Below, piece by piece: positions 18,528 to 43,907 of a DNA stretch of 43,907 bases; position 1 is the first letter of the stretch; every line of letters begins with the position of its first letter. The translations under genes and the position numbers were made by a program. Under the pieces are notes generated by a model. It was given only the letters and a program-made list of their open reading frames with translations, did not search any database and was not told where the DNA came from. The DNA is from Scenedesmus sp. PABB004. Taxonomy: Eukaryota. The stretch spans positions 496,001 to 539,907 of the forward strand of contig JABVCE010000024.1 of NCBI GenBank assembly GCA_014905635.1, in the 5' to 3' direction.

Positions 18528-19220
18528 GCGAGGACGCGCAGGCGGCACCGGGCACGGTGCGCAGCTGCTGCGCACGCTGGCGGACCAGGCTGCCGCGGCG
18601 GGACGAGCGCTGGCGGGGCGGCGGGCGTGCACCTGCACACGCGGCAGCGGTGTGAGGGAGAGCGCTGGGTGGACCTGGAGCGCACGGCCGGCAGCGGCGG
18701 CGGGGGCGGCCGCCAATCGGTTGCAACTTTCCAGCGCGCGGCGCCGCGGCGGCTCGCTCGCCGCGGGCTCGACCCAGCGCGGCGCCAGAACGGACCGTCT
18801 GCGCTAGTCCTCTAGGCAAAGGGAAACAAAAGGATGATGAGGCAGCCAAGTTCCCGCTCCGCGCCCACGCTTGTGTGTGCCGCGCGCCTCGCGATGCGGG
18901 CGCGCGCCCTGACCCCCCCCCGCACCCGCCCCACCGCGCCGCGTGCGTTGCCCCCTCTCGGCTCGTTCGCACGCGCAGGCGCTCCCCCAGCGCTGCGCGG
19001 GTCGCGCCGCGCCGGGGGGATCGCTCGCCCCGCCCGCGCGGCCCGCCGCCGCCCGCGCCACCGCGCGTGCGCAGGCCTCGCGCCGCTCAGTGCTCGCGGC
19101 GGCGCGCCCCGCTGGCTCGGCGCTCGGAGGGCGCGAGGCGCGTGCACGCGCGCCGAGCGCACTCCGCGCCGCTCGGTGCTCGATGCTCGCGGCGGCGGGC
19201 GCGCCCCGTGCGGCGGTGGC

Positions 19221-19566
19221 TCAGTGCTTGGAGGGCGAGAGGATCTTGCGGTGCATCGCGCACAGCAGCATGTAGATGAACACAAATGCCGCGCCGACGA
19301 TGATGTCCTGATGATGCCCCGGGGCATAAGATTGAGTTAGGACAGCGGCGGGAGCGGGGGCGGGCGCAGCGGCGGCTCAGCGGCGGCGCGGCGCGTGCGG
19401 GGCGCCCCGGCGGGCAGGGCGGCGCGGCGGGCGCGGGGAGGCGGCGGCGGCGGCGCGGCGCTCACAAAGACGATCCACCAGTTTGTGACGCGCAGCGCGA
19501 AGTACGTGATCATAGGAGACACAAAGCCAAAGATGCTGGGGATCTGGGTCATCATGTCTGCGTCAT

Positions 19567-19640
<74 letters not shown>

Positions 19641-22600: not shown

Positions 22601-22986
22601 GGTCACGGCGATCGTCCAGAGGATGAGCACCGCCACGCTCACGCCGCTCACGGTCGTCTCCTTGGCATCGTACAGCGTGTCGCCGATCGAGTGGTGCGAC
22701 TTCTCCGGCGCGAGGCCGCCCGACGCGGCGGGCGAGACTGCGCGCGGCGGGCGCAGCGGCGGGACGCGGGAGCTGGGGCGGCGGCTCCTGCTGCTGCCGC
22801 TGCTGCTCCTCCCGCTGCCGCCGCCGCTGCTGGGGTGGCAGGCAGCGCGCGGCGCAACGCACGCGCCGACGGCGACTCCACGCGCTGCTCGACCGGCGGC
22901 GCGTCCACTGCGGTCGCGGCGCCCGCCGCGTCGTCGAGGGCCGGCGCCTCGGCGGCGGCGGCGGCCTTCTTCTTGAACAGGCCCAT
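19221..22986 (-). CDS. Multi-pass membrane protein of unknown family (about 9 hydrophobic segments, about 12 exons)
   Basis: Spliceable exons MGLFKKK..., VSVAVLILWTIAVTGWTGFQ, ALWALVAIECGALIFFLSLAIALMWVP, FLPWFVTLVLVAAAWF, VMVYAMLTIAFHMLLWF, LLPSVLVVAALVL, MIVALIEFITAVWLSL, IPSIFGFVSPMITYFAL and DIIVGAAFVFIYMLLCAMHRKILSPSKH*. Confidence 0.8.
19569..19636. repeat. (CA)n microsatellite directly upstream of a minus-strand splice acceptor
   Basis: Seen directly in the sequence. Confidence 0.97.
20755..21092. repeat. 97-bp tandem repeat (3 full units plus a partial) spanning an exon end and splice donor
   Basis: Units start at 20755, 20852, 20949 and 21046 (cctgcttgacaaaggcggactgggtgtag...). One substitution is visible at 20881. 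Confidence 0.97.
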
Positions 22987-23510
22987 GCCTGCCGGCTGCC
23001 GCGCGGGCGGGGCGGGCTGCGTGGCCTGCGGCGCCAGCAGCGGCAGCAGCGGCGGCAGCGGCGGCCCGCGGTGAGCTGCAGGGCCGCCGCGCGGCCGCGG
23101 CGCGGCGTCCCGACAGTCCGCCGGGTCGGGCTGGCCGCGATGGGGAGGCGCGCGGGGCGCGGCGCGGCGCCTGGAGGCGCCCGCCAGCTGGCTCGTCCTC
23201 GCACCTGCGAGAGCTCGCCGCGGGGTCGCTGGCGGTCCACACGTTGTGCAGCGCTGATCGTGTGCTGAGCGTGTGCGGGGCGAACGGCACGGCCGCAGCG
23301 ATCACGGCACCACCAGGCGTGATGCGACCGCCTGTCCGGCTCCTGCTGCTGCACCACGTCGCCGTTCGCTCTCGCCCTCCTCGCATCACGTCACAGACCG
23401 ACGTCTCCCGACCCACCGCGACGTGGCGCAAGCCGGGGAAGCCCCCACGCGCGGGTCGGTGCTGGTGCCGTGCGCTCGGCCTCCGCGGCCCACGATCCCG
23501 GTCGCCGACC

Positions 23511-25882
23511 ATGCGCGCCCTGGCCGCGCATCAGCAGCCGCCGTGGTGCGGCGGCCGGCGCGGCGCGCCGGCGGCGGCACCGCCGCGCCGCTGCGCGCCG
23601 CTGCTGCGCGCCCGGCGGCACTGCGCGGCGGCCGCGGGCAAGGTGCGCGGCGCGCGTGGCGTGGTGGGATGGCGTCACGACTGGGCCGCAGAGCTCTGGG
23701 CGGCGGCGGCGGCGGCAGGATCTGCCGCCGCCGTGCTGTCCCCGGCGTCGCCTTGACTTCGACGACGAGCCGCTGCCGTGCGCACGCGCTGCCGCTTGCA
23801 GGACGGCAAGCAGGCTTCCGAGGAGAAGCAGGAAGAGTACGTGGAGGCGCTGAAGAAGGGCGGCGTGGTGCGCCGGAGCCGGAGCCGGAGCGGGCGCCGC
23901 TGGCTGCGGGCTGGCTGCGCACCCGCCGCTGGTCGCGGCAGCAGCAGGCCGCCCACTACCCGCGCCCGCGCCGGCTCCGGCCACACAGGACCAGGCCACC
24001 GCGCAGCGCATCCTCGACAAGTGGCGCGAGGCGGGCGCGGAGTCCGACCCGAGCCAGCTGCGGAAGCTCTTCCTGAGCCAGAGCCTCGTCCCGATCGCCG
24101 CGACCGCGGTGCAGGTGCGCTATTGCCCTCGCCGCCGCCACCGCCACCGCCGCCGCCGCGGCGCTCTCGCCGCCTCTGCCTCTGCGCCGCGCCGCGCGCT
24201 CCCCACCGCGCCGCAGCTCCCCCGCACCCTTGGTCGCCCAGATGCACTCGTGTGCTCGCCCACGCCCCACGCACACACTCACACACGCTCACACACACTC
24301 ACACACACCCAAACACACACACACATCCACAAGCGCAGCTGCTCTTTGACGGCGGCGCCGCCTACTCCATCTTCATGACCTCGACCCTCTTTGCCGCGGG
24401 GCCCGACTTCTGGGGTGCGCAGGCGGTAGTCTTCCCGCCAAAACGCTCGAAACCCCTGCACCTCCCACCTGTGGGCGCGCTGGCTTGCTCGCTTGCTCCC
24501 CCACTCACGCGGGCCCTCCGTGCCCGGCGCCGTTGTACAGGCCGCCCGTTTGCCGTGTTTGGCCTGGACTTCCTGGCCATATACTTCGCACTCAGCGTTT
24601 TCTTCGACGTGATCACACTCACCTCGGGTGCGCGGCGCGGCACGGCGGCGGCTTGGCGCGCGCGCACGCGGCGGCAGGCGCGGGCGACGGCGGCAGGCGC
24701 GGGCACGGGGCGCCCATGCGCCGCGCCACGACCGGCTCTGCGGCCCCGCGCCCCCGCCCCGCAGTCGTCATCACGACCGCCAAGCTCGGCACCGCGCCGC
24801 AGGCGTTCTACGACGGTGCGCCGCTGCGCGACGGGCGGCCACCCGCGCCCGCTGCGCGCGGCTCGGCGCGCGCCGCGCGCGCCGCACGCGCCGCACGCCC
24901 AGCCCGCCGCCACAACCCTGCCGCGCCGCCCTCCCACGCCCCGCGCGGTGCGCAGCGGTCAAGGCCATCGCCGGCCCCGCGGGGTCCGGCGGCGCGGACG
25001 GGCTGAAGATTGTCGAAAAGGCCAAGGCAGCGGTCTCGGCCGTCAAGGTGCGTGTGCGCGCGTGCTGCTGTTTGCTCTGCCTGTGTCCTCCTGAGCGTGT
25101 GTGCGCATGCATGCGTGCGCCGCGTCAGGTCGCGTCGGCGCTGGACGCCATCGCCGGCCTGCTCGAGACGGCGGCGGCCGGCGGCGCCACGCGGGGCGAC
25201 GCGACGAAGAGCATCGACACGCTGAGCAACCTGTCGGCCTATGTCACGCTCTACCGGTGAGCGGGGCGCGATCAGCCTGTGCCGGCCTCGCCGTCGCGCC
25301 CCCGCCGCGCCGGCCGACGCGGCGGCGCCGCGCCACGCCACGCCGCGCCCGCCGCCGCCGCAGCGCCGAGTCGGCGGGCGGCTTTGACCCGGCGCGTGTC
25401 GGGCTGTCGGAGGCGGAGGCGGCCAACATCGCGCTCGTGTTTGGGCAGTACGACCTGGACGACAACAACAAGTGCGCCGCATGGGGCCCAAACCCAAAAC
25501 CAAAACCCCCTGCGCTGCTGGGCTGTACGGCTGCCGACCCGGCCCCCCTGGTTGCCCTGCTGCGCCGCCGCCACGCCACCCGCCGCCGTGCCGCCCGCCC
25601 GCCGCGCCAGGCTGGACGCGCGGGAGTTCCGGGGCATGCTCTCCGCGCTCGGCTCGGACGTGACCGAGGACGAGGCGGCCGCCGCGATGGAGGTGCGCGG
25701 CCCGCCGCGGCCGCCGGGCGCGCGACGCTGCCACCGCGAGCGCTGCCGCCGCCGCCGCCGCCGCTGACCGCTGCCCTGCGCCCCCGCCGCCGGCGCCGCA
25801 GGTCATGGACACGGACAAGGACAGCTTCATCACGTTTGCCGAGTTTGCGGAGTGGTGGGCGGCGCGCAAGCGCAGCAAGTGA
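23511..25882 (+). CDS. Plastid-targeted membrane protein with a C-terminal EF-hand pair, 11 exons
   Basis: Transit-peptide-like start, hydrophobic segments (LLFDGGAAYSIFMTSTLFAA; FAVFGLDFLAIYFALSVFFDVITL) and EF-hand loops FGQYDLDDNNK|LDAREF and MDTDKDSFITFAEF. Confidence 0.85.
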
Positions 25883-26406
25883 GGCGGAGAACGTGACGGC
25901 CGCCGCGGTCTCGTGACCGCCTGGTGAACGCCGTGGCGTGCCCATTGACCGCGTTGACCGCGGCCCCCTAGGCTCCGTACGAGTGCGCAAGCCCCCAGGA
26001 GCACGCATGAAACCGCACGGCGTCGTCCCGCGGCCCGGCGGCCCGGCGTTGCGGGCTGGGAGCGCTCGCGACGCCGCGGCGCGGTCTGGCGCCCGCGCCC
26101 GCTCGGCTTGCGCGCTGCCGCCCCCGCCTCCGCGCAAGTCTGGAACACTACATCGCCGCACGTCTGCCGAGCGCCCAGCAGCAGCCGCTGCGCAGCTGGC
26201 GCCCAGCAGTCGCCTCAGTCGCCGCGCGCTCGCTCTCGCCACGCAGCCTGCAGCACCAGCGCCTCCAGCAGGCGCCAGCAGCTGACCCGCTCCCGTAGCG
26301 AGCCCCGCCCGGGCCTGCGCGGGCTGCCGTCTCGGAGCGCGCTCGCGCCGAGCCCGCGCGGCGCCGCGCCGCTGCTCTGCCGCCGCCGGCGGCGGCGCCT
26401 CGCGCC

Positions 26407-29400
26407 ATGATCCTGTCAAAGGCCCGGGCCCGGCAGCCCGCCGGCCGGGGCGACTCGGTGAGCGGCGACCGGGCCGCGCCGGCGCGGCGCACGCGGGCCC
26501 CAGGGCCCGCGCGGCGCACCGCAGCGCGGCCGCCGACGCGCGCCGCCGAGCGCAGGCCAAGCGCGGCGGCGAGAAGCGCGTGCCCAGCCTGGAGGAGCTG
26601 CTGGAGGCCCGGGACTACGTGGGCGCCATCACGCTGCTGCAGTACAAGTGCGGCGCGCACGCGGGCGCGCGCTCGATCGAGCACGCGGGCGCGCGCCCCG
26701 GCCAGCGCTCGTGAGCGAGGCCCGCCCGCCCCTGCGCAGGCGCCGGGGCGCGCGCGGCGACGCCAAGCTCGCCGAGTGGCAGGCGTACGCGCACTTCCAC
26801 CACGGCGAGCAAGACAAGGCGCGCAGGCGCAGAGCGCGGGCGCAGCGCGCGCGCGCCAGCGCCCCTGCGCGCCAAGCCGCCGCGCGCTCACCAAAACACA
26901 CTATGCCCCCTCTCACACACACACTCACAAAGCACACAATCACACACTCACACGCACCCACGCTCCCAGGCGCTCGCGCTGTACCGGGAGCTGCTGGCGG
27001 GGCCCGACCCCGACCCGGTCCACCACATCTACGCCGCGGCCTGCTGCCTCCACATGGGCCTCCTGGAAGAGGCGGTGGAGGCGGCCAGCATGGTGCGGCG
27101 CGCGGGGCTGGCGATGCGGAGCCTGGCCGCGGCGTGGCCAGCAGGGTTTGACTGCTTGCCGCGCAGCGCGGCGCGCAGAGCCGCAGCGCGGCGCCGGCGG
27201 CGGCGGCGGCGGCAGCGCGGTCGGCCGACGCCCGCGCCGCGGCCGCGCCGCGCAGGGCCCGCGCTGCCCGCTCGCGACGCGCGTGCTGTTCCACGCGGCG
27301 CACCGCCGCGGCGACGAGGACGGCCTCATGGCGCAGCACGGCGCGCTGGGGGACGGGCCGGAGGACCAGCTCAGCCTCGCGGCGCTGCACTTCCACCGGG
27401 GGCACTTCCAGGCGCGGCGCGCAGTGCCGGCTGGCCGGGCCGGGCCAGGCGGACACCGTGCGGCGGGCGGCGCACCGGCCGCCCACCGCGCGCTGGCGCT
27501 GGGCTCCGGGCGGCGCGGCCCACGCGGCGCGCCGCGCGCCGCACCGGCCGCAGGAGGCGGCGGACATCTACAAGGCGCTGCTGCTGGAGAGCCGCGACCT
27601 CGCCGCGCTGAGCTACCACGTGGCCCTCTGCTACGCCAAGCTCGACTTTTACGACGTCAGCAACGAGCTCCTGCAGGTCCGGTGTGCCTGTGTCTCTGCC
27701 CGGGCGCGCTGCCAGCGTCGACTGACGGGGCTGCGGCCGGGGAGGGGCAGAGGGGGTGTGCCAGGTGCACGCAGCGCGCGGCGACGCGAGCCCCTGCGCG
27801 CCGCCGCCGCAGACCTACCTGAGCAGCCACCCCACCAGCCCGCTCAGCGTCAACCTGCGTGCCTGCAACGCCTTCCGGTGCGCCGCGCGCGCACGCGACC
27901 TCTGCCGCCGCCCGCTGACTGCGAACCGACCACGCTGCGCTGCGCCTCCCGGCTGACCTCCCGACCCCGCGCCGCGCGCCGTGCCCCGCGACACGCCGCA
28001 GGATGTTCAACGGCAAGGCCGCCGAGGCGGAGCTGCGCGGCCTGGCTGAGGCGTGCGGCGGGCGGCACGCGGAGGCCCACGCGCTCGTGCGGCACAACCT
28101 GGTCGTCTTCCGCGGCGGCGAGGGAGCGATGCAGGCGCGCGCGCGCCCGCGCCGTCGCGGCACGCTGAGCATCCAAGCCCCCCCGCAACGGCCGGGCCCG
28201 CCCGCCGCCGAGCGCGGCGCGCCGCGACCGCGGCTCTGACGCCGCGCCACGTGTCGTGCCGCGCCGCGCGCAGGTGCTGCCCGCCCTGGGCGACGCGCCG
28301 CCCGAAGCCGCGCTGAACCTGGTGATCCACCACCTGCGCCGCGGCAAGGTCGGCGAGGCCGCGGCGCTGCTGAGCGGCCGCGGCCCCCAGCGACGCCGCA
28401 CGAGTACATCCTGCAGGCGCGGCTTGGGCGAGCCAAGGGGCGGCAGGCAGCAGGCAGAGCAGCCGGCGCACGCAGGGCCGGCTGACGGGCCGCTGCGCGC
28501 GCCGCCGCCGCGCGCCGCGCCCGCGCAGGCTGTCGTCGGCGTGCTGCAGGGCCAGGCGAGCGGCAGCATGGAACAGCTCAAGGCCGCGCAGCAGGCCTTC
28601 CAGGTCTGGCCCCGCGCGGCAGCAGGGCTGGCGCGCGAGCGCGCCAGCCGCGCGCGGCGCGCCGCCGGCGGCGGCAGCCCCGGCCCAGTCGCTGAGCGCG
28701 CGCGCCTTTCCGGCGCGGTCCCGCCGTCGCCGCCGCCGCCGCCGGCGCAGGTGGTGGGATCGAGCGCAAGCGAGTGCGACACCATCCCCGGGCGCCAGGC
28801 CATGGCGAGCGCCTACTTCCTGGCGGGCGCGTGGGAGGACGTGCTGGTCTTCCTCAACGTGAGGCGGCGTTTCTTGTAGCGATGAGGCCCAGGGCGGGCC
28901 GCCGCGCAGCGGCGGGGCCGCACGCTGGTCCCCGCGCGCTCCGCGCCACGCGCGGCTGCGTCAGAGACAGCCTCGGGCTCCGCGGCGAGCCGCGCCGCGC
29001 GCCGGCCCAGACCTCACCGCCCCTGCCGCGCCTTGCAATCAACGGCGGCAGTCCATCAAGTCGTACTTTGCTGGCGACGACACGTTTGCATGGAACCTCG
29101 CCCTCGCGCTTGCGGCCACGGGCGCGCACCGCGAGGCGGCCGATGCGCTGCGCGGCATCACCAGCGAGACTATCAGGCCAGCGCCGCGCGGGGGTGACAT
29201 TGCGGCGGCGGCTGGGCTGGGCAGCGCCCCGGGCGGCAGGCAGCGCCGCCGTGCGGTGGGGCGCCTGCGCCCGGGCCCTGCTCAGCGAGCGCCGCCCGCC
29301 GCCCGCTGCGTGCTGCGCGGTCCGCCAGGTCGGACCCGCTGCACCTCGCCTGGCTGTGCCGCTGTCTGGTGCTGTCGGGGCGCGCGGGCGAGGCTTGGGC

Positions 29401-30026
29401 GGCGTACGAGGCCGCCGCGGGGGCCGGCGCGCCGGGCGCTGCGGGCGAGGCTGGATACCGGCTGCTGCAGGTGATCGCGGGCGACTGCTACCGCGCGGGC
29501 GCCTTCCTCCACGCGCTCAGGGTGCGTGCGCGCCGCAGCGGGCGGGGCGAGCGCCGGACCCGCTGCGGCTGGCCGGCGCGGCTGGCGAGGGCGGGGCGCG
29601 CGCCGCGCCCGCCCAGCGGCCAGCGGCCGCCGCCCCGGCCCACGGCCCCGCCGCACGTACTCCGCCAGGCGCTGGACGCGCTGGAGCGGCTCGACCCCGC
29701 GCCGGAGCTGCTCGAGGCCAAGCGCGGCGCGGCGGCGGGGGCGCTGCAGCTCATTGTCGCCGGCAAGCTGCAGGTGGGCCGGCGCCGCGCTGCCAGCGCC
29801 GCGCCGCTGCTCCGCTGGCGGCGGGGCTGGCTGACGACGTTGCGCCGCCGCGCTGGCCGCCGCCGCGCGCGCGCAGCCCGAGCTGCTGGCAGAGGTGGTG
29901 GAGCTGCTGCAGGCCAGCGCGGGCGGCGGCGCCGGTGGGCGGGCGCGTCCGGCGGCAGCGCAGCAGGTGGAGCACATGGTGCGCGTGATGCGGGCGTGGG
30001 GGCTGCGCAACGGCGTCGCGGTGTGA
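26407..30026 (+). CDS. IFT56: Intraflagellar transport protein 56 (IFT56/DYF13/TTC26), about 15 exons; apparent 1-nt frameshift at 28384-28388
   Basis: MILSKAR..., [122 protein letters not shown] and [17 protein letters not shown] match known DYF13/TTC26 motifs. Confidence 0.95.
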
Positions 30027-30372
30027 GCGTGGCGGGGCCGGCGCCAGCTCTGTGCATGCGTTTGGTGTTACTCTTGACTTGCCGGTGGCGCCGGGCCGGC
30101 TCTTTATTGCCAGCAGCGAGACAGCACATACGCCAGCAGCTGCTCGTGCCTGTCTTGCTTTGCCCAGCCGCCGCACATACGCCGCTCCCTACTAGCCGCG
30201 CAGTGCTGCTAGCCCCCGCGACTTGAGACCAGCTGACGCAATGGCTTCCCGGACCCACAGCGTTGCGCGCACGTGTCTTGAAGTGGACTCTAGCAGACAT
30301 GTGACTTGTCCAAGGCTCCTTGGTGATGGGGGCGAGGCCCAGACTTGGTGACAATGAGCGTGCTTGCGCGGC

Positions 30373-33300
30373 TCAGTTGCACAGCATGCGGACGCGGGCG
30401 AGTGCTTGCTGCGCGCTGTCCAGGACTCCAGCGAAGCCGACGGTGTAGAGGCCGGGCGTGCAGTTGAACGCCGGTGCGGGTGTGATTGTCTGTGTGAACG
30501 TTGTGTCTGGATAGAACGCAAAGGGCCCTGGGGCGCCGCCCGGGACGGTGGCACCGGTGAAGTCCCAAGCTCCCAACTCGACCGCCCTGATCCACGCGTC
30601 CGTGCGCGCAGAGAAACTGAAAAAGACTGAGTTGGCGAGGGTGTTTGCTGTGGCGGTAGAAGCGCCGGAGGTACAGCCCCACGTGACAGTTGCAACGACA
30701 AAATCGTTGCCCCGTGTGGTGCAGTGGATGCGCAAAGCTGTGACGCGCGTTGTGGTTGAGGTGTCCTGTCGTGAGAGAACGTCGACTCGGTAGACGTACG
30801 TCCCTGGGTTGGGGCAAGTGGCAGTAAAACTCAACGTGTTCACGGGCTGTGCGGTGCCAGCCACGTCCGGTGACATCTGCACGTTTGCGAGCGAGGTGCA
30901 ACAGGCATTGCTCAGCGTGGCCAGCGTCGTGCCGTCCGGCGGGATCGGAGGGAACGTGCGCCCCACAGTGCCGACGGGGCATGCCACGTTGAGTGCCTTG
31001 CACGTGGGCTGCGAGCGCGCACGGGCGCAGGCATGAGCACGGCGGCGCTGCGGCACCGCGGGCTGGCTTGAGCAAACGCCGCCGCACCTTGCAGCAAGTC
31101 AACTGGGCATCGTTCAGTGACGTGCCGTCTGGTACAAGAGCCTGGATTAGGTTGTTGTTCGGTACATAATCAGGGGGGCAGCCGATTGCCTTACACGTGC
31201 GCTGCGACAGGGCAAGGCGGTCGCAGTGCGAGGCGTCAGTTCGCGTGACGCCGCGCCGCCGGCGCGCGCCGGCGCAGAGCTTGACAGCATGGCGGCCGCC
31301 ACCACAGTCCGCTCTGCACGCAAACTCCGCACCTGGCAGCACAAACCATTGGTCGGTGTGTCGCCATCACTCGGGATAGGCGGGGGCTGCTTCAGCGTGT
31401 AGCCGGTTGTGCAGGTGAAGGATGATGCCGTGCAGGTTGGCTGCGGCAGGGCGCGGCGGCCGGGTGTGCGGCGTCAGTCAGTCAGCGCGCAGACGCAGAC
31501 GCCGTGGCGCACCACCGCCCATCCTACCCCCCAGACGCCGCACCTTGCAGCAAAGGAGCACAGCCTCAGTCAGTGACGCGCCATCTGGTATGACAGGCCA
31601 GATGCTCTTGGTTAAGTAACCGGGGGGGCACGTCATACCAGCTGAACCAGTGGCTATGGCGCCACATGTGAGCTGCGACAGGGCAAGGGCGCGGGGAACG
31701 GGGGTGGGTGGGGGCAGGATTGACGTGCATGCGGTCGTCTGCCGCCGCGCGCGCACAACACCCACCCGTGCACTTCGTTGTAGCGGCATCCCATCCAAAG
31801 CCGTTGGCGCAGTCGCACATGTAGCCGCTGCCAGGCGCAGCGACGTCGTGGCAGGTGCCGTTGGAGTTGGCCACGTTGGCACAGGGATTGCCGCCGCCTG
31901 CGGTGGCGCAATCATCCTTCTCTGCGGGGCAGCGCAAGCGCCCAGGTCGGCAGCATGAGCTCCGACCTTGGATTGCCAGCGCCGTCGAGCGGAGCCCGCT
32001 GGGGCACGCGCTCACCGATGCACTTGCGCTGCGCCGCGCTCCATGTCAGGCCGCGTGTGCAGCCACAGCTGAAGCCGCCGCCCGCGGTGTTGGAGCACGC
32101 GCCATCCGACCCCACGACAGCGGCGCAGGGGTTGTTGGTTGGGTCGCAAATGTCGTTTGCTGCGGCGGTGAGCGCGGCGAGTAGGGCGGCCGAGTCGGTG
32201 GATGGTGCACAAGGGGCACAGAGGCACACAGACGCACACCCCGTCACTCACCCGGGCTCGGGCTCGGGCTGGGCCTGGGGACGGGGCTCGGGCTCGAGGG
32301 GCTCGGGCTCGAGGGGCTTGGGCTCGGGCTGGGCTTCTGTGCCGGGGTGGTGCACGTGGACGTGGCCGGGTTGCAGAAGAAGCTCGCGCAGTCGCCATCC
32401 GCCTTGCACGACTTGTTATCGCCGCAGAGGGCGCACGAGCTGCCGCCGCAGTCCACAGCGGTCTCATCGCCGTTCTTGACACCGTCGGTGCAGGTCGGCT
32501 CCTGCAGTGGGCAGCCGGCACCATGCCAATGGTCGGCGTCAGCTGCTAATCTGAGCGGTTTCGCCGAGTGAGCGGGAGCAGGCACAATCACGCACCTTTG
32601 TCGCGCACACGCCGCTGACGCAATTGGTGGACGCGCAGTCGGTTGCAGCGGTGCACTTGCTGCCGGCCGGGCATGCAGGGCAGGTGCCACCGCAGGTGGT
32701 GTTCGAGCAGGACGGTGCCTGCGCGTTTCAGGCAGGTGGCGGCAGCGCAGCGAGGGGTTGCGTATTGCTGGGTGTTGCGCGCGACACATGGCGCCGCGCG
32801 CTGCGCATGCTCACCACCGTCGAGCACACGCTGTTCACACAGTTGCCAGACGAGCAGTCGCCGTCGAGTGCGCACGGCTGCTGGAGCGGGCAGGGGCGGC
32901 AGCTGACGCCGCCGCAGTCGGTGCCTGCGGTCAGGCAGCGGCCAAGCGTGAGGCCAGGCCGGCTGTCAGGGTGCCACCACAAGGCGGTGCGCAAGGCTGC
33001 TGAGGGGGCGCCGACCGCCCCGCACCCGTCTCGTCCTGGTTCTTGATGCCGTCGGAGCACGTGGGCCAGGCCCCGCTGCACGTGCCCTGCACACAGTTGC
33101 CTGTATCACAATCAGTTGGCACCAGGCATGTGGTGCCAATGGAGCAGGCGGGGCAGGCGCTGCCACCGCAGTCTACGCCCGTCTCCAGACCGTTCTTGAT
33201 GCCGTCGGAGCAAGTTGGGTGCTGCAGGGTGTCAGCAATGAGGCAGGTGTGAGACGCCGGGAGCAAGAGGGTCGAGAGGCAGCTCGCTGCATCCGCCCTC

Positions 33301-35265
33301 GCGCGTGCGCGCACCGGTTCGCCGCAGGAGCCTCCCTTGCAGTAGTCAGAGCCGCAATCGGAGTCTATCTTGCAGGCGGCGTGGATGGTGAGGCACGGGA
33401 GGCACGAGCTGCCACCGCAGTCCACGTCAGTCTCGTCACCGTTCTTGATGCCGTCAAAGCAGGTCGGCTCCTGTGTCTTGCACACACCGTTGATGCAGTT
33501 GGCGGACGTGCAGTCATACGCAGTTGAACATTTACCGCCGACTGGGCACGCCGGGCAAACGCCGCCGCAGGTGGTGCTAGAGCAGGACGGCGGCTGCGCG
33601 TTCCGGACAGGCAGCAGCAGCGCAGCGAGGGGGTTGAGCGCTGCTGCACAGAGTGCAGCGCACACCCGCCGGGGCTGCGCTGCGCGCGCTCACCTGGCGG
33701 GCGCAGAAGCTGCCCCTGCACAGCAGGCCAGTGCTGCAGTCCGAGTCAAAGGTGCAGCGCGTTCCTCTGCGGCACTCGGGGCAGTTGGGCCCGCCGCAGT
33801 CGACGTCGGTTTCGTTGCCATTCCAGATGCCTGTGCGGTGCGCCAGCGGGGAGGGGCTCGGGTCGGGCTGTAACCGCTGGCGAGCGCGCAGCGCTGGTGG
33901 TAGCCGCATGCTGCGGCCCAGCACGGGGGGCGTGGTGCGCGCGCACCGTCGTTGCACGTGGGGACCTGGGCGACGCAGCTGCCCTTGTTGCAGTTGCTGG
34001 ACGCGCAGTCCGAGGGCCGCTCGCAGCGCTGCCCCGTGCCGCACGGAAGGCAGCTCGAGCCGCCGCAATCCACACCTGCGAGGGCGCGAGCGTAGCGCAG
34101 CACGTCGGCACCCAGAGGCGCGTGCGGCAGAGCCCCCCTCCTCCCCCCTCCTCCCCACCGCGGGCGCGGGCCACGGGCCACACCTGTCTCGCCCGGGCTC
34201 AGCAGGCCGTCCTGGCAGGATGCAGCCAACACGGCGCAGAAGCCACCCTTGCAAAGACCATCTGTGCAGTGTGCAGAGCTGGAGCACCGCTTGCCGGTCG
34301 AGCACGTAGGGCAGCTCCCGCCGCAGTCCACGTCTGTGTGCGTGGGTGTGCGTGTGCGTGAGGCGGCGGCAGCAGATCAGGCGGCGTTGTGCGGCAGTGC
34401 CCGCTGCAGGGCACCCCGGGCGCGCTCGGCGCGGCGCACCTGTCTCGTCGCCGCTCTTGACGCCGTCCGTGCAGTGGGCCGGGGTCACCTGCGCGCGCGC
34501 ACACAGCGATGGGTCGGTCCACAGGGCCCAACAAGCCGCCCCCTCGCTCCCCCGCTCGCGCGCCTCGCTGTGCGTGCGTGCGCGCGCCACTACTCACCAC
34601 ACCGCCGGTGACGCACTGGCCGGCGCTGCACGCGCCCCCGGTGCAGGCCGCGCCGTCAGCCTGGTTCCTCCAGTAAATCATGCCCGTGTTGGCGTCGCAC
34701 CCCAGCGGCGCGCGGCACTGCTCGGGCGGGGGCCGCACGCACGCACGGCACGCCGAGGTGCCGCCGGGCGACCAGGCGCCCGCCGCACACTTTGTGCAGG
34801 TGGGGCCGGGCGCGTAGCCGTAGCCAGGCACACAGACTGCGGGAGCGCGCGAGTGTGAGGTGAGGCGAGAGCCCGCGCCTTGGTGCGCTTGCTGCGCGTA
34901 GCAGGCCGCGCACCATCACAAGCCTTGGAGTTGTGCCCTACGGTGGTGAAGGGGAACGGGCAGCGATTGCAGCCTCGCTTGGAAGCAGTGAGCGTGTAGC
35001 CTGGGCTTGAGCACAGGCAAATCGGCGGGGAGCCAGGCGTGCACGCGGCGCAGCCCGGGATGCCGCATCCGTGCAGCGCCGAGCTCGGCGGCAGCTTGAC
35101 GCCGCACTTGCTCTCCGTCGCAGCCACGGCTGCGGGTACTGCTGCGTGAGCGGCCGTGGCAGCGGCAAGCATCAGAGCGAGTCCGAGAAGCGCCGCTGAA
35201 GCGGGGCGGCGCCCGCGCTGCGGGCAGAGCTGGGTACATAGCGGTGACATGTTGGAACGTTTCAT
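30373..35265 (-). CDS. Secreted Cys-rich repeat protein, copy A: signal peptide, DCGG repeats, SP linker, 2 EGF units, then 4 TC..CC repeats and a putative beta-prism domain; may be a chimeric, out-of-phase fusion
   Basis: Mirror of copy B down to about 31688, then unrelated exons ending ...LARVRMLCN* at 30373. Confidence 0.75.
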
Positions 35266-35293
35266 GAAAAAACGTTGAGAGAGCGCAAACTGC
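31688..35293 (-). repeat. Left arm of a ~3.6 kb inverted duplication
   Basis: Reverse complement of 37260-40867. Mirrored ORF coordinates sum to 72553 (34678+37875, 32244+40309), then to 72556 outside a short diverged patch (31912+40644). Confidence 0.97.
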
Positions 35294-36069
35294 TCGACGG
35301 GCCCCGCTACGCGATCGGCCGGCCTAACAGTTGTTCTAACATGGTGCGAAGCTCCGGCTGGTTACTCTGAAGGGTTGTTCAACATAGCGACGCGCCCCAC
35401 GCTCCAGGGCCAGCTGGCTGCCTGGACACGGGCGCTGTGGTACTGGGCGCGAAGCAGCGACTACAGGCGCATGGTCGCGGTCTCGCGTCTGGGCGGCCTG
35501 GCGCACGCCCAATCGCACAGGAGGCAAAAGCCCGATTGGCATGCCACCGCTGGCACGCCGGGCGCTGATGCCACTGGCACGTCCGCACGTGGCACGCGGG
35601 ACCGTCAGTGGCACTGGCGCCCAATCCCCGCGCCAGATCACGCCCCAGGTTGTCGGCCCGACAGCCCCGCCGACGCCTCCAAGCAGTGCCCCCTCATGCT
35701 GCCACCGCCCGCTGCGACAGCCGCTTGTCAACGCCAGCAGCCGGGGGCGGCGCTGCCAGTGGCGCAGCTGCGTGTCGGCGGTTCCGTAACGATCGGAGCT
35801 GGCCTGTCATGCCATCCAGCATGGCCACGGGGCCGCGGCCATGCTGCCGCTGCTGCGACGCCCGCGCCCCGCCCGGCGGGCCCCGGCGGCTGCTCCGGCA
35901 GCCGCGCCCAATGCCACCGGTCCACCTGTGCGCACGCGCAGCCGCTGCTGCGCGGCGGCGCGGCCGCCGCGAGCCCGGCAGTCGCGGCGGGGCGCAGCCT
36001 AGGCGGCCCTCTGACCTCTCACCGCGCCCACCACCTCAGCCGCCGCCTCGCCCGCCCCTGGTGGTGCAG

Positions 36070-36624
36070 GGCCACGCGGAGGCGGTGGTGCGCGGCCTGG
36101 CGCTCGAGAGCCTGGCGGAGCTCGACGGCGTCGTGGGCGTCGGCGGCGACGGGTTGTTCAGCGAGCTGCTGGCCGGCCTGCTGCAGCACCCGCACCCCGC
36201 GCAGGCCCTGCGCCTGCGCCTGGCGCTCATTCCTGGCGGCTCGACCGACGCCGTGGCGTGCACGTGCGCGCACGCCACGCGCGCGCGCGGTCGGCGGCAG
36301 TGCGCCGGGGCCGCCGGTCTGCCGCGCCCGCCCGCCGACCCGCGCCACCGCCGCCCGCGGCCGATCCACGCCAGGCTGCACGGGACGCGCGACGCCCTGA
36401 CCGCGACCCTCCACATCGCTCTGGGCGACTCAACGCCCCTGGACGTCGCGCAGGTGGTGCCCTTGGCCGTTGCGCCGCCGGGCGGCGCGGTCGAGGCCGA
36501 GCGCGGCGCGACGGCGACCCCGCCATGTCACGCGGGGCGCAGCCCACCGCTGCCCTGCTGCACCGCGTTGGATCACGCTCGGGCTTGGGCGTCGCCGGGG
36601 CGGCGCTGCAGCGCCGTTCGCTGA
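36070..36624 (+). pseudogene. Two-exon fragment of a ceramide/sphingosine kinase (DAGK catalytic domain)
   Basis: GHAEAVV...LDGVVGVGGDGLFSELLAGL...LALIPGGSTDAVACT|LHGTRDALTATLHIALGDSTPLDV shows the GGDG and CERK-type GSTD motifs. No upstream NPxxG exon and no downstream accessory-domain exons are seen before a stop at 36624. Confidence 0.75.
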
Positions 36625-37259
36625 GCGCTGGGCCGCGTCGGGGCCGAGCCGCCCGCCCGGTCACCGCCGCGCTGCGCCAGCAGCTGCGGCGTGCTATATA
36701 CCCCCGCACCACCGCCGCCTGGGGCACGCGCAGCGCACCAGGGGCAGGCAGCCGGCGGCCCGCCGCCGCGCGGGGCAGCGCACGGGGTGCAGCGCGTGCT
36801 GCCGCGATGTGGCTCGGCCGCCGCCGCGTGCGCGTGGCAGGCGACGGGCAGGGCCTGCTGCTTGAGTTGTTGCCGCCGGAGCGGCGCTGCTGCTGCCCGC
36901 CGCGCTGGCGGCCTGTGCGCGCCGCCAGCGCTGCTGCTGCCCGCCGCTCAGCGCCGCGCAGCGAGCTGCGATGCGGTGAGCCGGGGCGCGCCCGGCGGCA
37001 TGGCGGCGGCGGCTTGCTGTCGCCGGCGTGCGCCCACTGCGCTGGCGCCGGCGCAGTGCCGTTTGCGGAGGTCGTCGCGCTGCGCTGCCGCAGCTGTTCG
37101 TGCCGAGTACCACCACAAAATCATTCCCCCTCTCGCTTTCAGCGCCTCCAAGCGGCCAACCGGGCAAGCGCCGGGCGCGCCTTGTTAAGTAACCCTTCCG
37201 AAACACTGCCGAAGAGTGAGCTTCGCACCGTGTTACCGGCCGATCGCGCGACGCCGGGC

Positions 37260-40200
37260 GCAGTTTGCGCTCTCTCAACGTTTTTTCATGAAACGTCCCA
37301 ACATGTCACCGCTATGTACCCAGCTCTGCCCGCAGCGCGGGCGCCGCCCCGCTTCAGCGGCGCTTCTCGGACTCGCTCTGATGCTTGCCGCTGCCACGGC
37401 CGCTCACGCAGCAGTACCCGCAGCCGTGGCTGCGACGGAGAGCAAGTGCGGCGTCAAGCTGCCGCCGAGCTCGGCGCTGCACGGATGCGGCATCCCGGGC
37501 TGCGCCGCGTGCACGCCTGGCTCCCCGCCGATTTGCCTGTGCTCAAGCCCAGGCTACACGCTCACTGCTTCCAAGCGAGGCTGCAATCGCTGCCCGTTCC
37601 CCTTCACCACCGTAGGGCACAACTCCAAGGCTTGTGATGGTGCGCGGCCTGCTACGCGCAGCAAGCGCACCAAGGCGCGGGCTCTCGCCTCACCTCACAC
37701 TCGCGCGCTCCCGCAGTCTGTGTGCCTGGCTACGGCTACGCGCCCGGCCCCACCTGCACAAAGTGTGCGGCGGGCGCCTGGTCGCCCGGCGGCACCTCGG
37801 CGTGCCGTGCGTGCGTGCGGCCCCCGCCCGAGCAGTGCCGCGCGCCGCTGGGGTGCGACGCCAACACGGGCATGATTTACTGGAGGAACCAGGCTGACGG
37901 CGCGGCCTGCACCGGGGGCGCGTGCAGCGCCGGCCAGTGCGTCACCGGCGGTGTGGTGAGTAGTGGCGCGCGCACGCACGCACAGCGAGGCGCGCGAGCG
38001 GGGGAGCGAGGGGGCGGCTTGTTGGGCCCTGTGGACCGACCCATCGCTGTGTGCGCGCGCGCAGGTGACCCCGGCCCACTGCACGGACGGCGTCAAGAGC
38101 GGCGACGAGACAGGTGCGCCGCGCCGAGCGCGCCCGGGGTGCCCTGCAGCGGGCACTGCCGCACAACGCCGCCTGATCTGCTGCCGCCGCCTCACGCACA
38201 CGCACACCCACGCACACAGACGTGGACTGCGGCGGGAGCTGCCCTACGTGCTCGACCGGCAAGCGGTGCTCCAGCTCTGCACACTGCACAGATGGTCTTT
38301 GCAAGGGTGGCTTCTGCGCCGTGTTGGCTGCATCCTGCCAGGACGGCCTGCTGAGCCCGGGCGAGACAGGTGTGGCCCGTGGCCCGCGCCCGCGGTGGGG
38401 AGGAGGGGGGAGGAGGGGGGCTCTGCCGCACGCGCCTCTGGGTGCCGACGTGCTGCGCTACGCTCGCGCCCTCGCAGGTGTGGATTGCGGCGGCTCGAGC
38501 TGCCTTCCGTGCGGCACGGGGCAGCGCTGCGAGCGGCCCTCGGACTGCGCGTCCAGCAACTGCAACAAGGGCAGCTGCGTCGCCCAGGTCCCCACGTGCA
38601 ACGACGGTGCGCGCGCACCACGCCCCCCGTGCTGGGCCGCAGCATGCGGCTACCACCAGCGCTGCGCGCTCGCCAGCGGTTACAGCCCGACCCGAGCCCC
38701 TCCCCGCTGGCGCACCGCACAGGCATCTGGAATGGCAACGAAACCGACGTCGACTGCGGCGGGCCCAACTGCCCCGAGTGCCGCAGAGGAACGCGCTGCA
38801 CCTTTGACTCGGACTGCAGCACTGGCCTGCTGTGCAGGGGCAGCTTCTGCGCCCGCCAGGTGAGCGCGCGCAGCGCAGCCCCGGCGGGTGTGCGCTGCAC
38901 TCTGTGCAGCAGCGCTCAACCCCCTCGCTGCGCTGCTGCTGCCTATCCGGAACGCGCAGCCGCCGTCCTGCTCTAGCACCACCTGCGGCGGCGTTTGCCC
39001 GGCGTGCCCAGTCGGCGGTAAATGTTCAACTGCGTATGACTGCACGTCCGCCAACTGCATCAACGGTGTGTGCAAGACACAGGAGCCGACCTGCTTTGAC
39101 GGCATCAAGAACGGTGACGAGACTGACGTGGACTGCGGTGGCAGCTCGTGCCTCCCGTGCCTCACCATCCACGCCGCCTGCAAGATAGACTCCGATTGCG
39201 GCTCTGACTACTGCAAGGGAGGCTCCTGCGGCGAACCGGTGCGCGCACGCGCGAGGGCGGATGCAGCGAGCTGCCTCTCGACCCTCTTGCTCCCGGCGTC
39301 TCACACCTGCCTCATTGCTGACACCCTGCAGCACCCAACTTGCTCCGATGGCATCAAGAACGGTCTGGAGACGGGCGTAGACTGCGGTGGCAGCGCCTGC
39401 CCCGCCTGCTCCATTGGCACCACATGCCTGGTGCCAACTGATTGTGATACAGGCAACTGTGTGCAGGGCACGTGCAGCGGGGCCTGGCCCACGTGCTCCG
39501 ACGGCATCAAGAACCAGGACGAGACGGGTGCGGGGCGGTCGGCGCCCCCTCAGCAGCCTTGCGCACCGCCTTGTGGTGGCACCCTGACAGCCGGCCTGGC
39601 CTCACGCTTGGCCGCTGCCTGACCGCAGGCACCGACTGCGGCGGCGTCAGCTGCCGCCCCTGCCCGCTCCAGCAGCCGTGCGCACTCGACGGCGACTGCT
39701 CGTCTGGCAACTGTGTGAACAGCGTGTGCTCGACGGTGGTGAGCATGCGCAGCGCGCGGCGCCATGTGTCGCGCGCAACACCCAGCAATACGCAACCCCT
39801 CGCTGCGCTGCCGCCACCTGCCTGAAACGCGCAGGCACCGTCCTGCTCGAACACCACCTGCGGTGGCACCTGCCCTGCATGCCCGGCCGGCAGCAAGTGC
39901 ACCGCTGCAACCGACTGCGCGTCCACCAATTGCGTCAGCGGCGTGTGCGCGACAAAGGTGCGTGATTGTGCCTGCTCCCGCTCACTCGGCGAAACCGCTC
40001 AGATTAGCAGCTGACGCCGACCATTGGCATGGTGCCGGCTGCCCACTGCAGGAGCCGACCTGCACCGACGGTGTCAAGAACGGCGATGAGACCGCTGTGG
40101 ACTGCGGCGGCAGCTCGTGCGCCCTCTGCGGCGATAACAAGTCGTGCAAGGCGGATGGCGACTGCGCGAGCTTCTTCTGCAACCCGGCCACGTCCACGTG

Positions 40201-40867
40201 CACCACCCCGGCACAGAAGCCCAGCCCGAGCCCAAGCCCCTCGAGCCCGAGCCCCTCGAGCCCGAGCCCCGTCCCCAGGCCCAGCCCGAGCCCGAGCCCG
40301 GGTGAGTGACGGGGTGTGCGTCTGTGTGCCTCTGTGCCCCTTGTGCGCCATCTTCTGCCGACACTGCCGCCCTGCGCCTGCTCGCCGCCGCAGCGAACAA
40401 CAACACGTGCGACCCAGTCAACAACCCCTGCGCCGCTGTCGTGGGGTCGGACGGCGCGTGCTCCAACACCGCGGGCGGCGGCTTCAGCTGTGGCTGCACA
40501 CGCGGCCTGACATGGAGCGCGGCGCAGCGCAAGTGCATCGGTGAGCGCGTGCCCCAGCGGGCTCCGCTCGACGGCGCTGGCAATCCAAGGTCGGAGCTCA
40601 TGCTGCCGACCTGGGCACCTGCGCTGCCCCGCAGAGAAGGATGATTGCGCCCCCGCGGGCGGCGGCAACCCCTGTGCCAACGTGGCCAACTCCAACGGCA
40701 CCTGCCACGACGTCGCTGCGCCTGGCAGCGGCTACATGTGCGACTGCGCCAACGGCTTTGGATGGGATGCCGCTACAACGAAGTGCACGGGTGGGTGTTG
40801 TGCGCGCGCGGCCGCAGACGACCGCATGCGCGTCAATCCTGCCCCCACCCACCCCGTTCCCCGCGCC
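37260..40867 (+). repeat. Right arm of the inverted duplication
   Basis: Reverse complement of the left arm, 31688-35293. Confidence 0.97.
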
Positions 40868-43800
40868 ATGAAATCTAGCGACGAGTGACTGCGTGCTCAA
40901 GCCCTGCGCCAACGTCACCAACTCCAACGGCTTCTGCTCTGACCTGCCCAATGCGGGCCACACCTGCGGCTGCAACCCGGGCTACACGTGGATTGCCAGC
41001 GCCGGCGCGTGCAGAGGTAAAGAATGGCCATGCCGCAGCGTGACAACGGGCGTCGCGCCCTGCAGCGTGCCAGCGGCTAACCGACACCCTCGCTCGCCCA
41101 CCTGCTGCGCCTGCGCAGACACGGACGGCTGTGCTGGCAATCCTTGCAAGGCCGACCCCAACGCCAATGCCACCAGCTGCAAGGACGTCCCAGCGCCCGA
41201 CAGCGGCTACACGTGCATGTGCAATCCCGGCTTTGTTTTCAACGCTATCACACGCAAGTGCCAAGGTGCGTTGCAGGAGAGCCGGGGCTCGCCTCTGCAC
41301 GCTGCACGCCGCACGCTGTGCGCCGCCCCCGCTCACCACCCCTCGCCCTTGCTCGCTGCCAATACACAGACGAGGACGGCTGTGCAAACAAGCCGTGCGC
41401 TGGCATCGCGAATGCTAATGGTGTCTGTCACGACGTGCCTGCGCCTGGCACTGGATTCACCTGCGAGTGCAACCCAGGTGGGTGGTGGGCGGATTGGCTG
41501 GGGGGCTGCGAGGTGACCAGTGACGTGTGTGCGTCTGCGGTATTCACGCCGCCGCTCACGCACGCGCGCTCCCTCTGGCTGCGCCAACCAGGCTACGGCT
41601 GGGCGGCGGCGACCAAGGTGTGCACAGCGACAAACGCATGCGTCACCAACCCATGCCAGGGCTTGCCGTTCTCGAACGGTGTGTGCTCCAGCCTGCCGGG
41701 CATGCAGTACAGCTGCGGGTGCAGCACCGGCTACAGCTGGAGTGCTGCGTTGCGCACGTGCATCGACACCAACGGTTGTGCGTCCAACCCTTGTGATGCC
41801 GACCCCAACGCCGTCATTGGAAGCTGCACGGACGTGCGCGCCCCAGACACCGGGTACACGTGTCGCTGCAAGCCTGGGTGAGCTCTTGTCTTGTCTGAAA
41901 TGTGCAAAAACCTCAACGCATTAACTGCCTTGAACTCCGAGCTGACAGTCTGCGTCACGCGGCCGCCCACTTGCAGGTATGAGTTCAACCAGCCAACGAG
42001 GCAGTGTGTAGGTGAGTGACCTCATTTCAGTGTTGCGTGTTGTGCTTCCGCGAGCCCAAAGGGCGTTGCTAAGACTGCCTGCCCGCAGATCCCAACGGCT
42101 GCACCAACGCGCCATGCAAGAGTGTGGCCAACTCCAACGGTCGCTGCTCTGATGTGCTTCCGCCAAACACGGGCTACGTGTGCGGCTGCGACACAGGTTA
42201 CAGCTGGGATGCCGCTGCCCTCAAGTGCAAAGGTGGGTGCGTGTGAACAGCATTGATTGTGGTACTGGGAATGTAGCTACTGCGGGAAATTGCCTCGCTC
42301 GTTGGCGGCAGACGCTGAGCGTGATAGGGCTGCCCAGTCCTGAGTATTCCCAAAACAATGCTCCCCCATCGCAGACACAAACGGCTGCCTGGGCAACCCA
42401 TGCTCCAACATGACCAACGCCAGCGGTGCCTGTACGGACGTGCCAGCGCCTGGCAGTGGGTTTGTGTGTGGCTGCATCAATGGCGCGCAGTGGATCTCTG
42501 GCGCGTGTGTTGGTGAGCAAAACGCTGTTTTGCCGCCGCTGCCTCATGCTGCTGCCACGTACATGCTCAACCCCCGCTGTTTCTGCCCGCAGATGTGGAC
42601 GGGTGCGTCAACAACACTTGTGGTGCTGTTCCTGGAAACAGCAATGGCACGTGCATCGATGTTCCAGCACCTGGCACAGGCTATACGTGCGCCTGCAGCG
42701 CCGGCCTCTCCTATGATGCATCCACCAACAAGTGTATCGGTGGGTGGGGGCTGCGCAAACAGAGTGGGCTTGAATTCATTAAATGCTGAGCCTCACACCC
42801 TTGCTGTCAATCGCAGACACCAACGGCTGCCTGGGCAACCCATGCTCCAATGTGACCAACGCCAATGGTACGTGCATCGACACTCAGGCTCCTGGAAATG
42901 GCTACAGCTGCGCCTGTCGCACAGGGTGAGGGAATGGGAATGCATTTTGCTGCACGAAATGCTCACGCGCTGCACCAGTCACCACCCCTCACCTTTCTGT
43001 CCGTGTCGCTGCAGGTACTCTTGGAGCAAGAGCGCCAAGCAGTGCAAAGGTAGGTAGGGGCGAGAAGGCCTTGCGCTGGTTGCTCGCTTCCAAGCCTCTC
43101 ACGTTTTTGGCTCCCCCTCTCTCTCTCCCGCTTTCTCCCTGTCTTGCAGACACAAATGGGTGCCGCAATGACCCATGTGGCACCGTCCCACACGCCATGA
43201 ACGGCTCGTGCGTCGACGTGGCAGCTCCTGGCACCGGCTACACGTGCAAGTGAGTGCACCGTGCCCGGGGTGTGACCGGGGGGGGGGGTGGATGGCGTGC
43301 TGCTCTCTCAACCGTTAAAGCCACTAACCAACGCCCAACTCAACAAAACTGATCAACTTTGCAGGTGCTCATCTGGATATTCTTGGAACACCACATCGTT
43401 GGCGTGCCAAGGTTGGTAGCTGGGTTAAATGATTCAACTTTTGTGGCTAACCTGGTGTTTCAATTGCTTGTTTAGTTTTGTTTGACGCCCATTTTCTCTC
43501 CGCCCGCAGACATCAACGGCTGTGTGAACAACACGTGCGCCGCTGTGGCCAACTCGGACGGCAGCTGCACAGACGTGCCTGCCCCGGGAACCGGGTACGT
43601 GTGTGGCTGCACCTCGGGCCGCGCATACGACGCTACAACCAACGCATGCACAGGTGGGTATGTGCCAGCACGTGAATTCGGCACCGCAGCTTTCTGCTGT
43701 GCTGCTGCTGCGCTGCCGGGGGCCACCCTGGGTTTGTGGTACTCTGCTCGCAGACATTGATGGCTGCACGGGCAACCCATGCGACAGCACGACCAACGCC

Positions 43801-43907
43801 ATAAATGGTACCTGTGCCGACGTGGCAGCTCCGGCACTGGCTTCACGTGCCAGTGAGTGTGCGCCGCCTGGCCCCAGGGGGAGGGGGTGCTGCTGCTGCT
43901 CTCGACC
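37288..43907 (+). CDS. Secreted Cys-rich repeat protein, copy B: signal peptide, Cys-rich N-terminus, 9 DCGG-type repeats, Ser-Pro linker, at least 14 tandem EGF-like units; runs off the window
   Basis: Hydrophobic LLGLALMLAAATAAHA, repeats such as PTCFDGIKNGDETDVDCGGSSCLPC, the linker PSPSPSPSSPSPSSPSP, and EGF units DTNGCxxNPC...C.DVxAPGxGYxCxCxxGYxW, mostly on phase-1 exons. Confidence 0.9.

Follow-up and report, generated by a model that had tools for sequence, protein, structure and literature searches.

What produces a pair of head-to-head genes that share their first half and end differently, and can such a pair act as a switch? The question is raised by a stretch of 43,907 nucleotides (nt) from Scenedesmus sp. 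PABB004 (assembly GCA_014905635.1, contig JABVCE010000024.1, positions 496,001 to 539,907 of the forward strand; hereafter the window), in which two genes, copy A and copy B, carry the same 5' half on the arms of a long inverted repeat. An earlier note, made from the sequence alone, had proposed that inversion of the spacer between the arms acts as a phase-variation-like switch for cell-surface proteins. We find it probable that an inverted segmental duplication made a chimeric paralogue here, with arms homogenised by gene conversion, a patchwork spacer and a copy A that was fused out of frame to its 3' part. The repeat consists of the following elements:

31688 to 35293, minus strand: arm A, with the 5' half of copy A in 13 exons; mirror mapping places its ATG at 35265.
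37260 to 40867, plus strand: arm B, with the 5' half of copy B; its exons run from 37288-37639 to 40635-40790.
35294 to 37259, no strand assigned: spacer, 1966 nt with a guanine-plus-cytosine (GC) content of 75.9%, the divergent upstream region of both copies.

The earlier note had read 31688-35293 as the reverse complement of 37260-40867, and we reproduced these exact coordinates with blastn, which returned one alignment (31688-35293 versus 40867-37260) of 3612 columns at 99.086% identity, with 23 mismatches and 7 gap openings. A repeat search resolved the structure into 3093-nt inner arms (32201-35293 and 37260-40352), 1966 nt apart, and an outer 475-nt pair at 96%. The genes lie head to head, and the sequence beyond each arm differs on the two outer sides. 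When the whole window was compared with itself, the only matches besides this repeat were internal module repeats of ~76% identity and a tandem repeat at 20755-21092.

We built a splice model of the arms from the window sequence plus the exon ends of the deposited protein HT031_005687 (P0016). In copy B, the arm model has 13 exons running from the ATG at 37288 to 40790, with a coding sequence of 2317 nt that contains no stop and ends in phase 1. The mirror model of copy A also has 13 exons and likewise ends in phase 1, after 2314 nt of shared coding sequence. All 12 introns of each arm are of the GT..CAG type and 77-116 nt long. As had been noted, the arms begin just upstream of the start codons: the first in-frame ATG (37288) lies 28 nt inside the arm, and a second ATG follows at 37303. 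The encoded order is a signal-peptide-like N-terminus (recognised by eye), a cysteine-rich region, about ten DCGG-type modules, an SP-rich linker and two EGF units. The 13-exon model of each arm thus bears out the shared signal peptide, DCGG repeats, SP linker and two EGF units that had been described for both genes.

Identity is uneven along the arms and forms a tract-like mosaic rather than a uniform divergence. The inner arm differs at 4 of 3093 columns (99.87% identity). These four differences fall in codon 4, between the two candidate ATGs, at one synonymous site and at two intronic sites. Outside this core lies one strongly divergent patch:

40353 to 40420, plus strand: divergent patch running from the last part of intron 11 into the beginning of the EGF1 exon; its partner in arm A is at ~32138-32200.

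Within the patch, 27 of 68 columns differ (18/32 in 40353-40384 and 9/36 in 40385-40420); the acceptor and the reading frame are nevertheless intact in both copies ('ANDICDPT' versus 'ANNNTCDPV'). The remaining outer arm differs at 9 of 448 columns, significantly more than the inner arm (Fisher P = 3.4e-6). A near-identical core, older-looking flanking homology and a foreign-looking internal patch are the expected product of repeated gene conversion between paralogues, and we infer from this pattern that the arms have been converted. The arms are also richer in GC (68.5% in their exons) than the unique parts of the genes (61.2% in the A-specific exons and 61.1% in the B-specific part). This difference would fit GC-biased conversion; amino-acid composition may alone explain it.

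Beyond arm B, the gene continues in kind:

40879 to 43907, plus strand: B-specific EGF array, recognised by its six-cysteine pattern and exon phases, which runs past the end of the window.

A strict six-cysteine EGF pattern matched ten times in 40300-43907, twice in the arm and eight times beyond it, and about four further, intron-split EGF units of copy B were recognised by eye in the translated frames. Together these agree with the earlier reading of at least 12 more EGF units in copy B. Pfam matches to EGF families were weak, the best reaching 21.9 bits against a cut-off of 21.5 and the others 18-19 bits. The two exons that follow the arm in copy B (40879-41016 and 41119-41265) have phase 1-1, as do the EGF exons of the arm. 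Because the exons following the arm are EGF units of this same phase class, gene B appears to be the intact parent.

Beyond arm A, a different gene part follows:

30373 to 31672, minus strand: A-specific 3' part, with exons 31672-31544, 31440-31333, 31201-31088 and 31008-30373.
31673 to 31765, minus strand: hybrid intron of copy A, 93 nt, GTGGGT..CAG, with a phase-1 donor and a phase-0 acceptor.

The A-specific part encodes four TC..CC modules and a C-terminal domain of ~190 amino acids; its 987-nt frame stays open up to the stop codon 30373-30375. The ending attributed to copy A, TC..CC repeats followed by a further domain, thus lies in a four-exon open frame. The introns within this part are all phase 0 and GT..CAG.

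The arm homology stops abruptly at 31688 and 40867, in the intron downstream of the second EGF exon, with 11-15 nt left to the acceptor; in copy A, 14-15 nt separate its end at 31688 from the acceptor of the first TC..CC exon. The acceptor past the edge of arm B opens a phase-1 EGF exon, whereas the acceptor of copy A opens a phase-0 TC..CC exon. This first TC..CC exon starts with the conserved 'xTC' of its module and has phase 0 like the other three. Copy A therefore carries a phase mismatch at its fusion point. Because a phase-1 donor meets a phase-0 acceptor, the fusion shifts the frame under consensus splicing, and the consensus product of copy A runs through 34 wrong-frame codons ('AHMWRHSHWF...') to a stop at codon 806, near 31570. 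The deposited model P0016 reads the same wrong frame after the fusion. Retention of the hybrid intron would leave the frame unmended, since 93 is a multiple of three, and the 32 in-frame combinations of donor and acceptor that we listed all depend on a donor outside the consensus or on a cryptic acceptor within the exon. As judged from its splice sites, copy A most likely yields a truncated N-half protein of ~805 residues, barring use of a cryptic acceptor. The description of the pair as a shared N-half with alternative C-termini is thus right in that the 3' parts differ, and falls short in that the A-specific frame is out of phase with the last exon of the arm.

The first and third TC..CC exons are preceded by introns whose last 16 letters ahead of the acceptor are the same (31673-31690 and 31201-31220). 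Because these letters are identical, the TC..CC module appears to have been duplicated along with its intron end. By analogy with the paralogous intron, a 4-nt microhomology (CGCC) with the arm is possible at the A breakpoint.

The spacer between the arms contains the following features:

35294 to 35437, no strand assigned: left spacer end, a decayed inverted copy of the right end and the putative site of the copy A promoter or 5' untranslated region.
36067 to 36516, plus strand: ceramide-kinase fragment Y', the second half of DAGK_cat with one read-through intron.
36599 to 37090, plus strand: ceramide-kinase fragment X', the kinase 5' region with a start ('MWLGRRRVRV') near 36806.
37140 to 37259, no strand assigned: right spacer end, the partner of 35294-35437, directly upstream of copy B.

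The spacer had been described as ~2 kb of unique sequence. Its length of 1966 nt agrees with this; the sequence itself is not wholly unique, as its ends share ~100 nt of decayed inverted homology, with a local alignment score of 46 compared with 22.9 ± 3.0 (maximum 36) in 200 shuffles. End-to-end alignment of the two ends shows common blocks inward of the sharp boundary at 35293/37260, and past the first ~100 nt the ends differ.

The two kinase fragments derive from sequence related to HT031_006851 (P0121), a protein of 1358 amino acids from the same alga that is encoded on another contig (87,414 nt) and has DAGK_cat at 805-912 and CERK_C at 1316-1354. Fragment Y' matches PF00781 (E 8.7e-9, profile positions 41-99 of 125) and is 96% identical to residues 846-994 of P0121. 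For fragment X', 36599-36784 correspond to P0121 residues 623-681 at 79%, and 36519-37112 to residues 600-800 (E 1.1e-30). A low-stringency tblastn search of P0121 against the spacer returned mostly low-complexity noise, and only two strong alignments were used. The pieces are permuted: on the same strand, X' lies downstream of Y' in the spacer, and its counterpart lies upstream of Y in the full gene. Neither the stretch between the two kinase pieces nor the remainder of the kinase with its C-terminus was found in the spacer, which thus holds no complete, ordered DAGK_cat and CERK_C. The alignments show the spacer to be a patchwork in which copied gene pieces stand in permuted order. To account for this order, at least one further rearrangement is needed: the pieces may have been inserted separately from templates, or have passed through a circular intermediate or a tandem-duplication junction. 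The kinase-derived start lies ~480 nt upstream of the copy B ATG and points at B. The deposited P0121, as we read it, fuses a zf-C3HC/NuBaID protein with a ceramide kinase, an apparent intergenic region having been translated.

The decayed inverted homology upstream of the arms, together with the graded and patchy identity along them, would also suit a history in which A and B are old head-to-head paralogues, long neighbours whose identity comes only from a recent B-to-A conversion tract. We consider this unlikely. The homology breaks off abruptly within an intron and does not resume, and the exon-phase classes are incompatible across the breakpoint, which would be unexpected in an older functional A.

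In the inverted segmental duplication that we favour, the 5' half of the secreted modular gene B (signal peptide, DCGG modules, SP linker and two EGF units) would have been copied in inverted orientation. A breakpoint within an intron would have linked the inverted copy to the 3' part of another, unrelated gene, with its four TC..CC modules and an orphan C-terminal domain, giving rise to the chimeric copy A. Later arm-to-arm gene conversion would hold the inner 3.1 kb at its present 99.87% identity, and the outer part of the arm, the 68-nt patch and the promoter-proximal ends would have drifted. The patchwork spacer points to a complex rearrangement that was probably replication- or repair-based. 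Occasional crossing-over between the arms would flip the spacer as a by-product of homologous recombination, not as a programmed switch.

Several points weigh against this account. Two of the 32 splice combinations join the consensus donor to the AG acceptors preceding 31653 and 31641 and could give an in-frame fusion; use of either acceptor would cost the first cysteine of the TC..CC module. The 987-nt A-specific frame is still fully open with consensus splice sites, which would be unexpected if it had long been untranslated. The outer junction of arm A at 31688 is bridged by none of the metagenome contigs listed, and one of them, X3 record 20, departs exactly there. Finally, the argument for conversion is drawn solely from the identity pattern of one genome, and short-read polishing of a long-read assembly can also homogenise repeats.

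Independent sequence came from six freshwater-metagenome runs in three studies, which cover the stretch partially (at most 0.29 of the sampled words). Short contigs from four of these runs were aligned to 29000-37259, and many parts are without cover. In contig X4 record 31 (273 nt), 35115-35293 are joined to 37259-37166 on opposite strands, which corresponds to the junction between the right spacer end and the arm. This contig has 179 letters on the arm side and 94 on the spacer side, with one other letter in each piece, so at least one inner junction exists outside this assembly. Contig X3 record 20 (823 nt) matches 31237-31688 with three other letters and then continues with 371 letters that fit nothing in 29000-37259. 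Its source joins the A flank either to other sequence or to a much more divergent arm. The A flank of another natural population thus departs exactly at the arm edge, which marks 31688 as a real evolutionary breakpoint. Contig X3 record 21 aligns to 32964-34082 with 8 gaps and differs there at 87 letters. Two further contigs do not qualify as bridges, since X1 record 8 enters the left spacer end by just 15 letters and X2 record 15 the arm by just 3, and a scan of metagenome contigs with a 27-base spacer pattern gave no matches.

The unbridged junction at 31688, together with the departure of X3 record 20 from the window at that very position, would also be expected of an assembly artefact, in which long-read assembly produced arm A falsely, as a spurious inverted copy or a misjoin, and polishing could then have produced the near-identity of the inner arms. 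We judge this to be very unlikely. The arms differ at the four inner sites, in the 68-nt patch and by 2% in the outer part, with splice sites and frame kept in both. They are separated by a 2-kb spacer and followed by a different, coherent gene sequence on either outer side, whereas fold-back read artefacts do not produce such a spacer with distinct coherent flanks. Moreover, the inner junction is present in X4 record 31, an unrelated metagenome contig.

Could the locus still switch, as the earlier note proposed? Crossing-over between inverted repeats inverts the intervening DNA, and it is geometrically sound that inversion of the spacer would exchange the upstream DNA of copies A and B. With a copy of the N-half on either arm, inverting the spacer leaves each N-half joined to its own C-half, and all that turns round is the spacer. 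In a flip-flop switch, the spacer would invert regularly, and its differing upstream ends would alternately drive A and B to give reversible surface-protein states. The repeat geometry permits such inversion, and the mosaic identity of the arms is indirect evidence that they recombine. The spacer ends also differ past ~100 nt, with the captured kinase 5' region on the right side pointing at B. However, the proximal ~100 nt upstream of the two copies are homologous to each other, and copy A is out of frame under consensus splicing. The segment is bounded by long coding repeats, 3.6 kb of exons and introns, and not by short inverted recombination sites. Pfam scans turned up no family of recombinases, integrases or transposases in the open frames that they covered, the opposite-strand frames of the arms lying outside these scans. 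One scan covered 40 of the 85 frames of at least 110 amino acids that end at or beyond 30000; the other covered 161 of the 167 frames of at least 125 amino acids that start before 30300, and the two overlap between 29198 and 31366.

The behaviour of human Y palindrome P6 also argues against a switch, with 56 conversion events against 3 inversions among 83 phased chromosomes in one study (PMC3723533). Because conversion so far outnumbered inversion in P6, arm identity does not imply frequent inversion. The proposed switch thus gained no positive support, and we regard regular flipping of the spacer as highly improbable. We give equally little credence to a recombination-active cassette, in which arm exchange and spacer flips would turn the kinase-derived 5' region alternately towards B or A and make the expression of two extracellular proteins reversible and heritable in clonal algal populations. 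In that reading, the intron at the arm edge might also be a recurrent point of exchange, given the one metagenome contig that joins the A flank to different sequence at 31688. If frequent flipping of the spacer were true, the locus would be a rare example of recombination-driven promoter exchange in a eukaryotic nuclear genome. The inverted-repeat geometry is also the sole pointer to a source of hairpin RNA, in which a read-through transcript of arm A (antisense), the spacer and arm B would form a 3.6-kb hairpin and, through small RNAs, silence the gene family. The genes diverge, so normal transcription does not span both arms, and we find this explanation scarcely credible.

The likeness that suggested a switch is to the tail-fibre (S/U) inversion of phage Mu Gin and to the R64 shufflon, where DNA inversion combines a constant N-terminal part with alternative C-terminal parts. 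Both have a single promoter and a single constant part and rely on a dedicated site-specific recombinase that acts at short sites; inversion changes which C-terminal segment is fused. In Scenedesmus, by contrast, the constant part is duplicated, so no coding junction changes, and a recombinase was not found in the scanned frames.

A closer likeness in arm structure is to large palindromes such as human P6. The large arms of primate and mouse X palindromes are reportedly kept alike by gene conversion (PMC8327919; bioRxiv 10.1101/800185). As in such palindromes, inverted arms of >99% identity flank a non-duplicated spacer in Scenedesmus, the identity is put down to gene conversion, and rare inversions of the spacer or arms would be a by-product of the same recombination. 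The large palindromes exceed 10 kb; the Scenedesmus arms measure 3.6 kb, and neither extends beyond the 5' half of its gene. Copies A and B part ways in their 3' halves, with a phase mismatch at one junction. For Scenedesmus, conversion is deduced from one genome and not from population phasing.

Exon shuffling uses intronic breakpoints between module exons of symmetric phase. The Scenedesmus breakpoint is likewise intronic, and its modules are single-exon and symmetric (1-1 for DCGG and EGF, 0-0 for TC..CC). Unlike in exon shuffling, the fusion joins different phase classes and so breaks the rule for productive shuffling.

Human fold-back inverted duplications offer a further comparison. Hermetz et al. 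2014 (PMC3907307) give 21 sequenced spacers of 766-70,466 bp (median 3,428 bp), and at the junctions either inverted microhomology of 2-8 bp or inverted repeats of greater length. The 1966-nt spacer between parent and duplicate and the inverted homology at the spacer boundary in Scenedesmus are similar. The fold-back cases described there are megabase-scale terminal duplications in patients, whereas the Scenedesmus event is intragenic. Unlike in the fold-back cases, the outer end in Scenedesmus was rejoined in the intron of another gene, and the spacer contains out-of-order pieces of a gene from another contig.

An inverted duplication of half a gene opens no new mechanism. At base resolution, the locus shows how genes for modular extracellular proteins are rebuilt in an algal genome that is compact and extremely rich in GC, and it records in one place an intronic breakpoint, a patchwork spacer copied from another gene and arms that were homogenised later. 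The deposited gene model of copy A, which starts mid-gene and runs in the wrong frame past the fusion, is corrected as well. In that model, HT031_005687, 490 residues map letter for letter to exons of the window, copy-A-only exons included. It begins in the wrong frame ('MATKPTSTAAG...') and is without exons 1-6. Past the fusion, its frameshifted reading contains an extra predicted intron, and the whole TC..CC and C-terminal frame is missed (31370-31673, 38732-39017).

The DCGG modules of the shared half have the form C-x-DG-x-x-NG-x-ET-x-V-DCGG-x-C-x-x-C, with a literal DCGG in seven of them. Among 8000 scored candidates, 954 proteins were related to the module at E ≤ 0.001, including proteins from Chromochloris (P0003), bdelloid rotifers (Adineta), Myxococcota and Bacteroidota, and no match was found among Pfam or NCBIfam models. 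The module (for example, 38960-39238 and 39332-39527) is thus an uncurated but widespread repeat, abundant in Myxococcota, in type IX secretion system (T9SS) proteins of Bacteroidota and in Adineta. Its spread in eukaryotes is patchy, covering bdelloid rotifers and a few green algae. A proteomic study of the maternal cell wall of Scenedesmus obliquus found two proteins with EGF-like domains (PMC11839794). This fits an extracellular role for proteins of this kind.

The A-specific C-terminal domain had no relatives among longer proteins and no matches at E ≤ 0.001 in 1.84 billion representatives, and its atlas matches scored at most 0.80, which is chance level. A PKD-like Pfam match was rejected (E 0.006-0.008, 16.5-17.1 bits against a cut-off of 27). 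The AlphaFold model of the domain was unusable, with a mean predicted local distance difference test (pLDDT) score of 33.1. Scanning metagenome contigs with the A-specific C-terminal protein gave 125 pattern matches, none of which was confirmed.

The repeat locus is part of the nuclear genome of a very GC-rich green alga. According to a published comparison, the PABB004 assembly has 39.8 Mb in 77 contigs, with an N50 of 1.3 Mb, 78.5% GC and 1.31% repeats (PMC12571836). Because the assembly is so contiguous, long reads were likely used to build it. The reported genome GC of 78.5% agrees with that of the window. The locus does not have the character of a plastid-type flip-flop in an organelle genome with large rRNA-bearing inverted repeats: no Rfam family and no tRNA was found in 28000-43907, and its spliceosomal GT..AG introns mark nuclear-type genes. 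GC content is 75-84% across the first 30 kb of the window versus 58-73% over the repeat region. The modular surface-type genes (30000-43907) thus form a relatively GC-poor island beside the neighbouring 30 kb.

Elsewhere in the window, the first 15 kb hold ordinary nuclear gene fragments (CBS, TP_methylase, amidase, DUF2256, FSH1 and a RING finger). The following ~14 kb (15213-29516) have 69-80% GC and long open frames on both strands, and none of the 74 scanned frames of at least 125 amino acids there matches a Pfam family at E ≤ 0.001. The tandem repeat at 20755-21092 has a period of ~97 nt, and its copies are ~99% alike.

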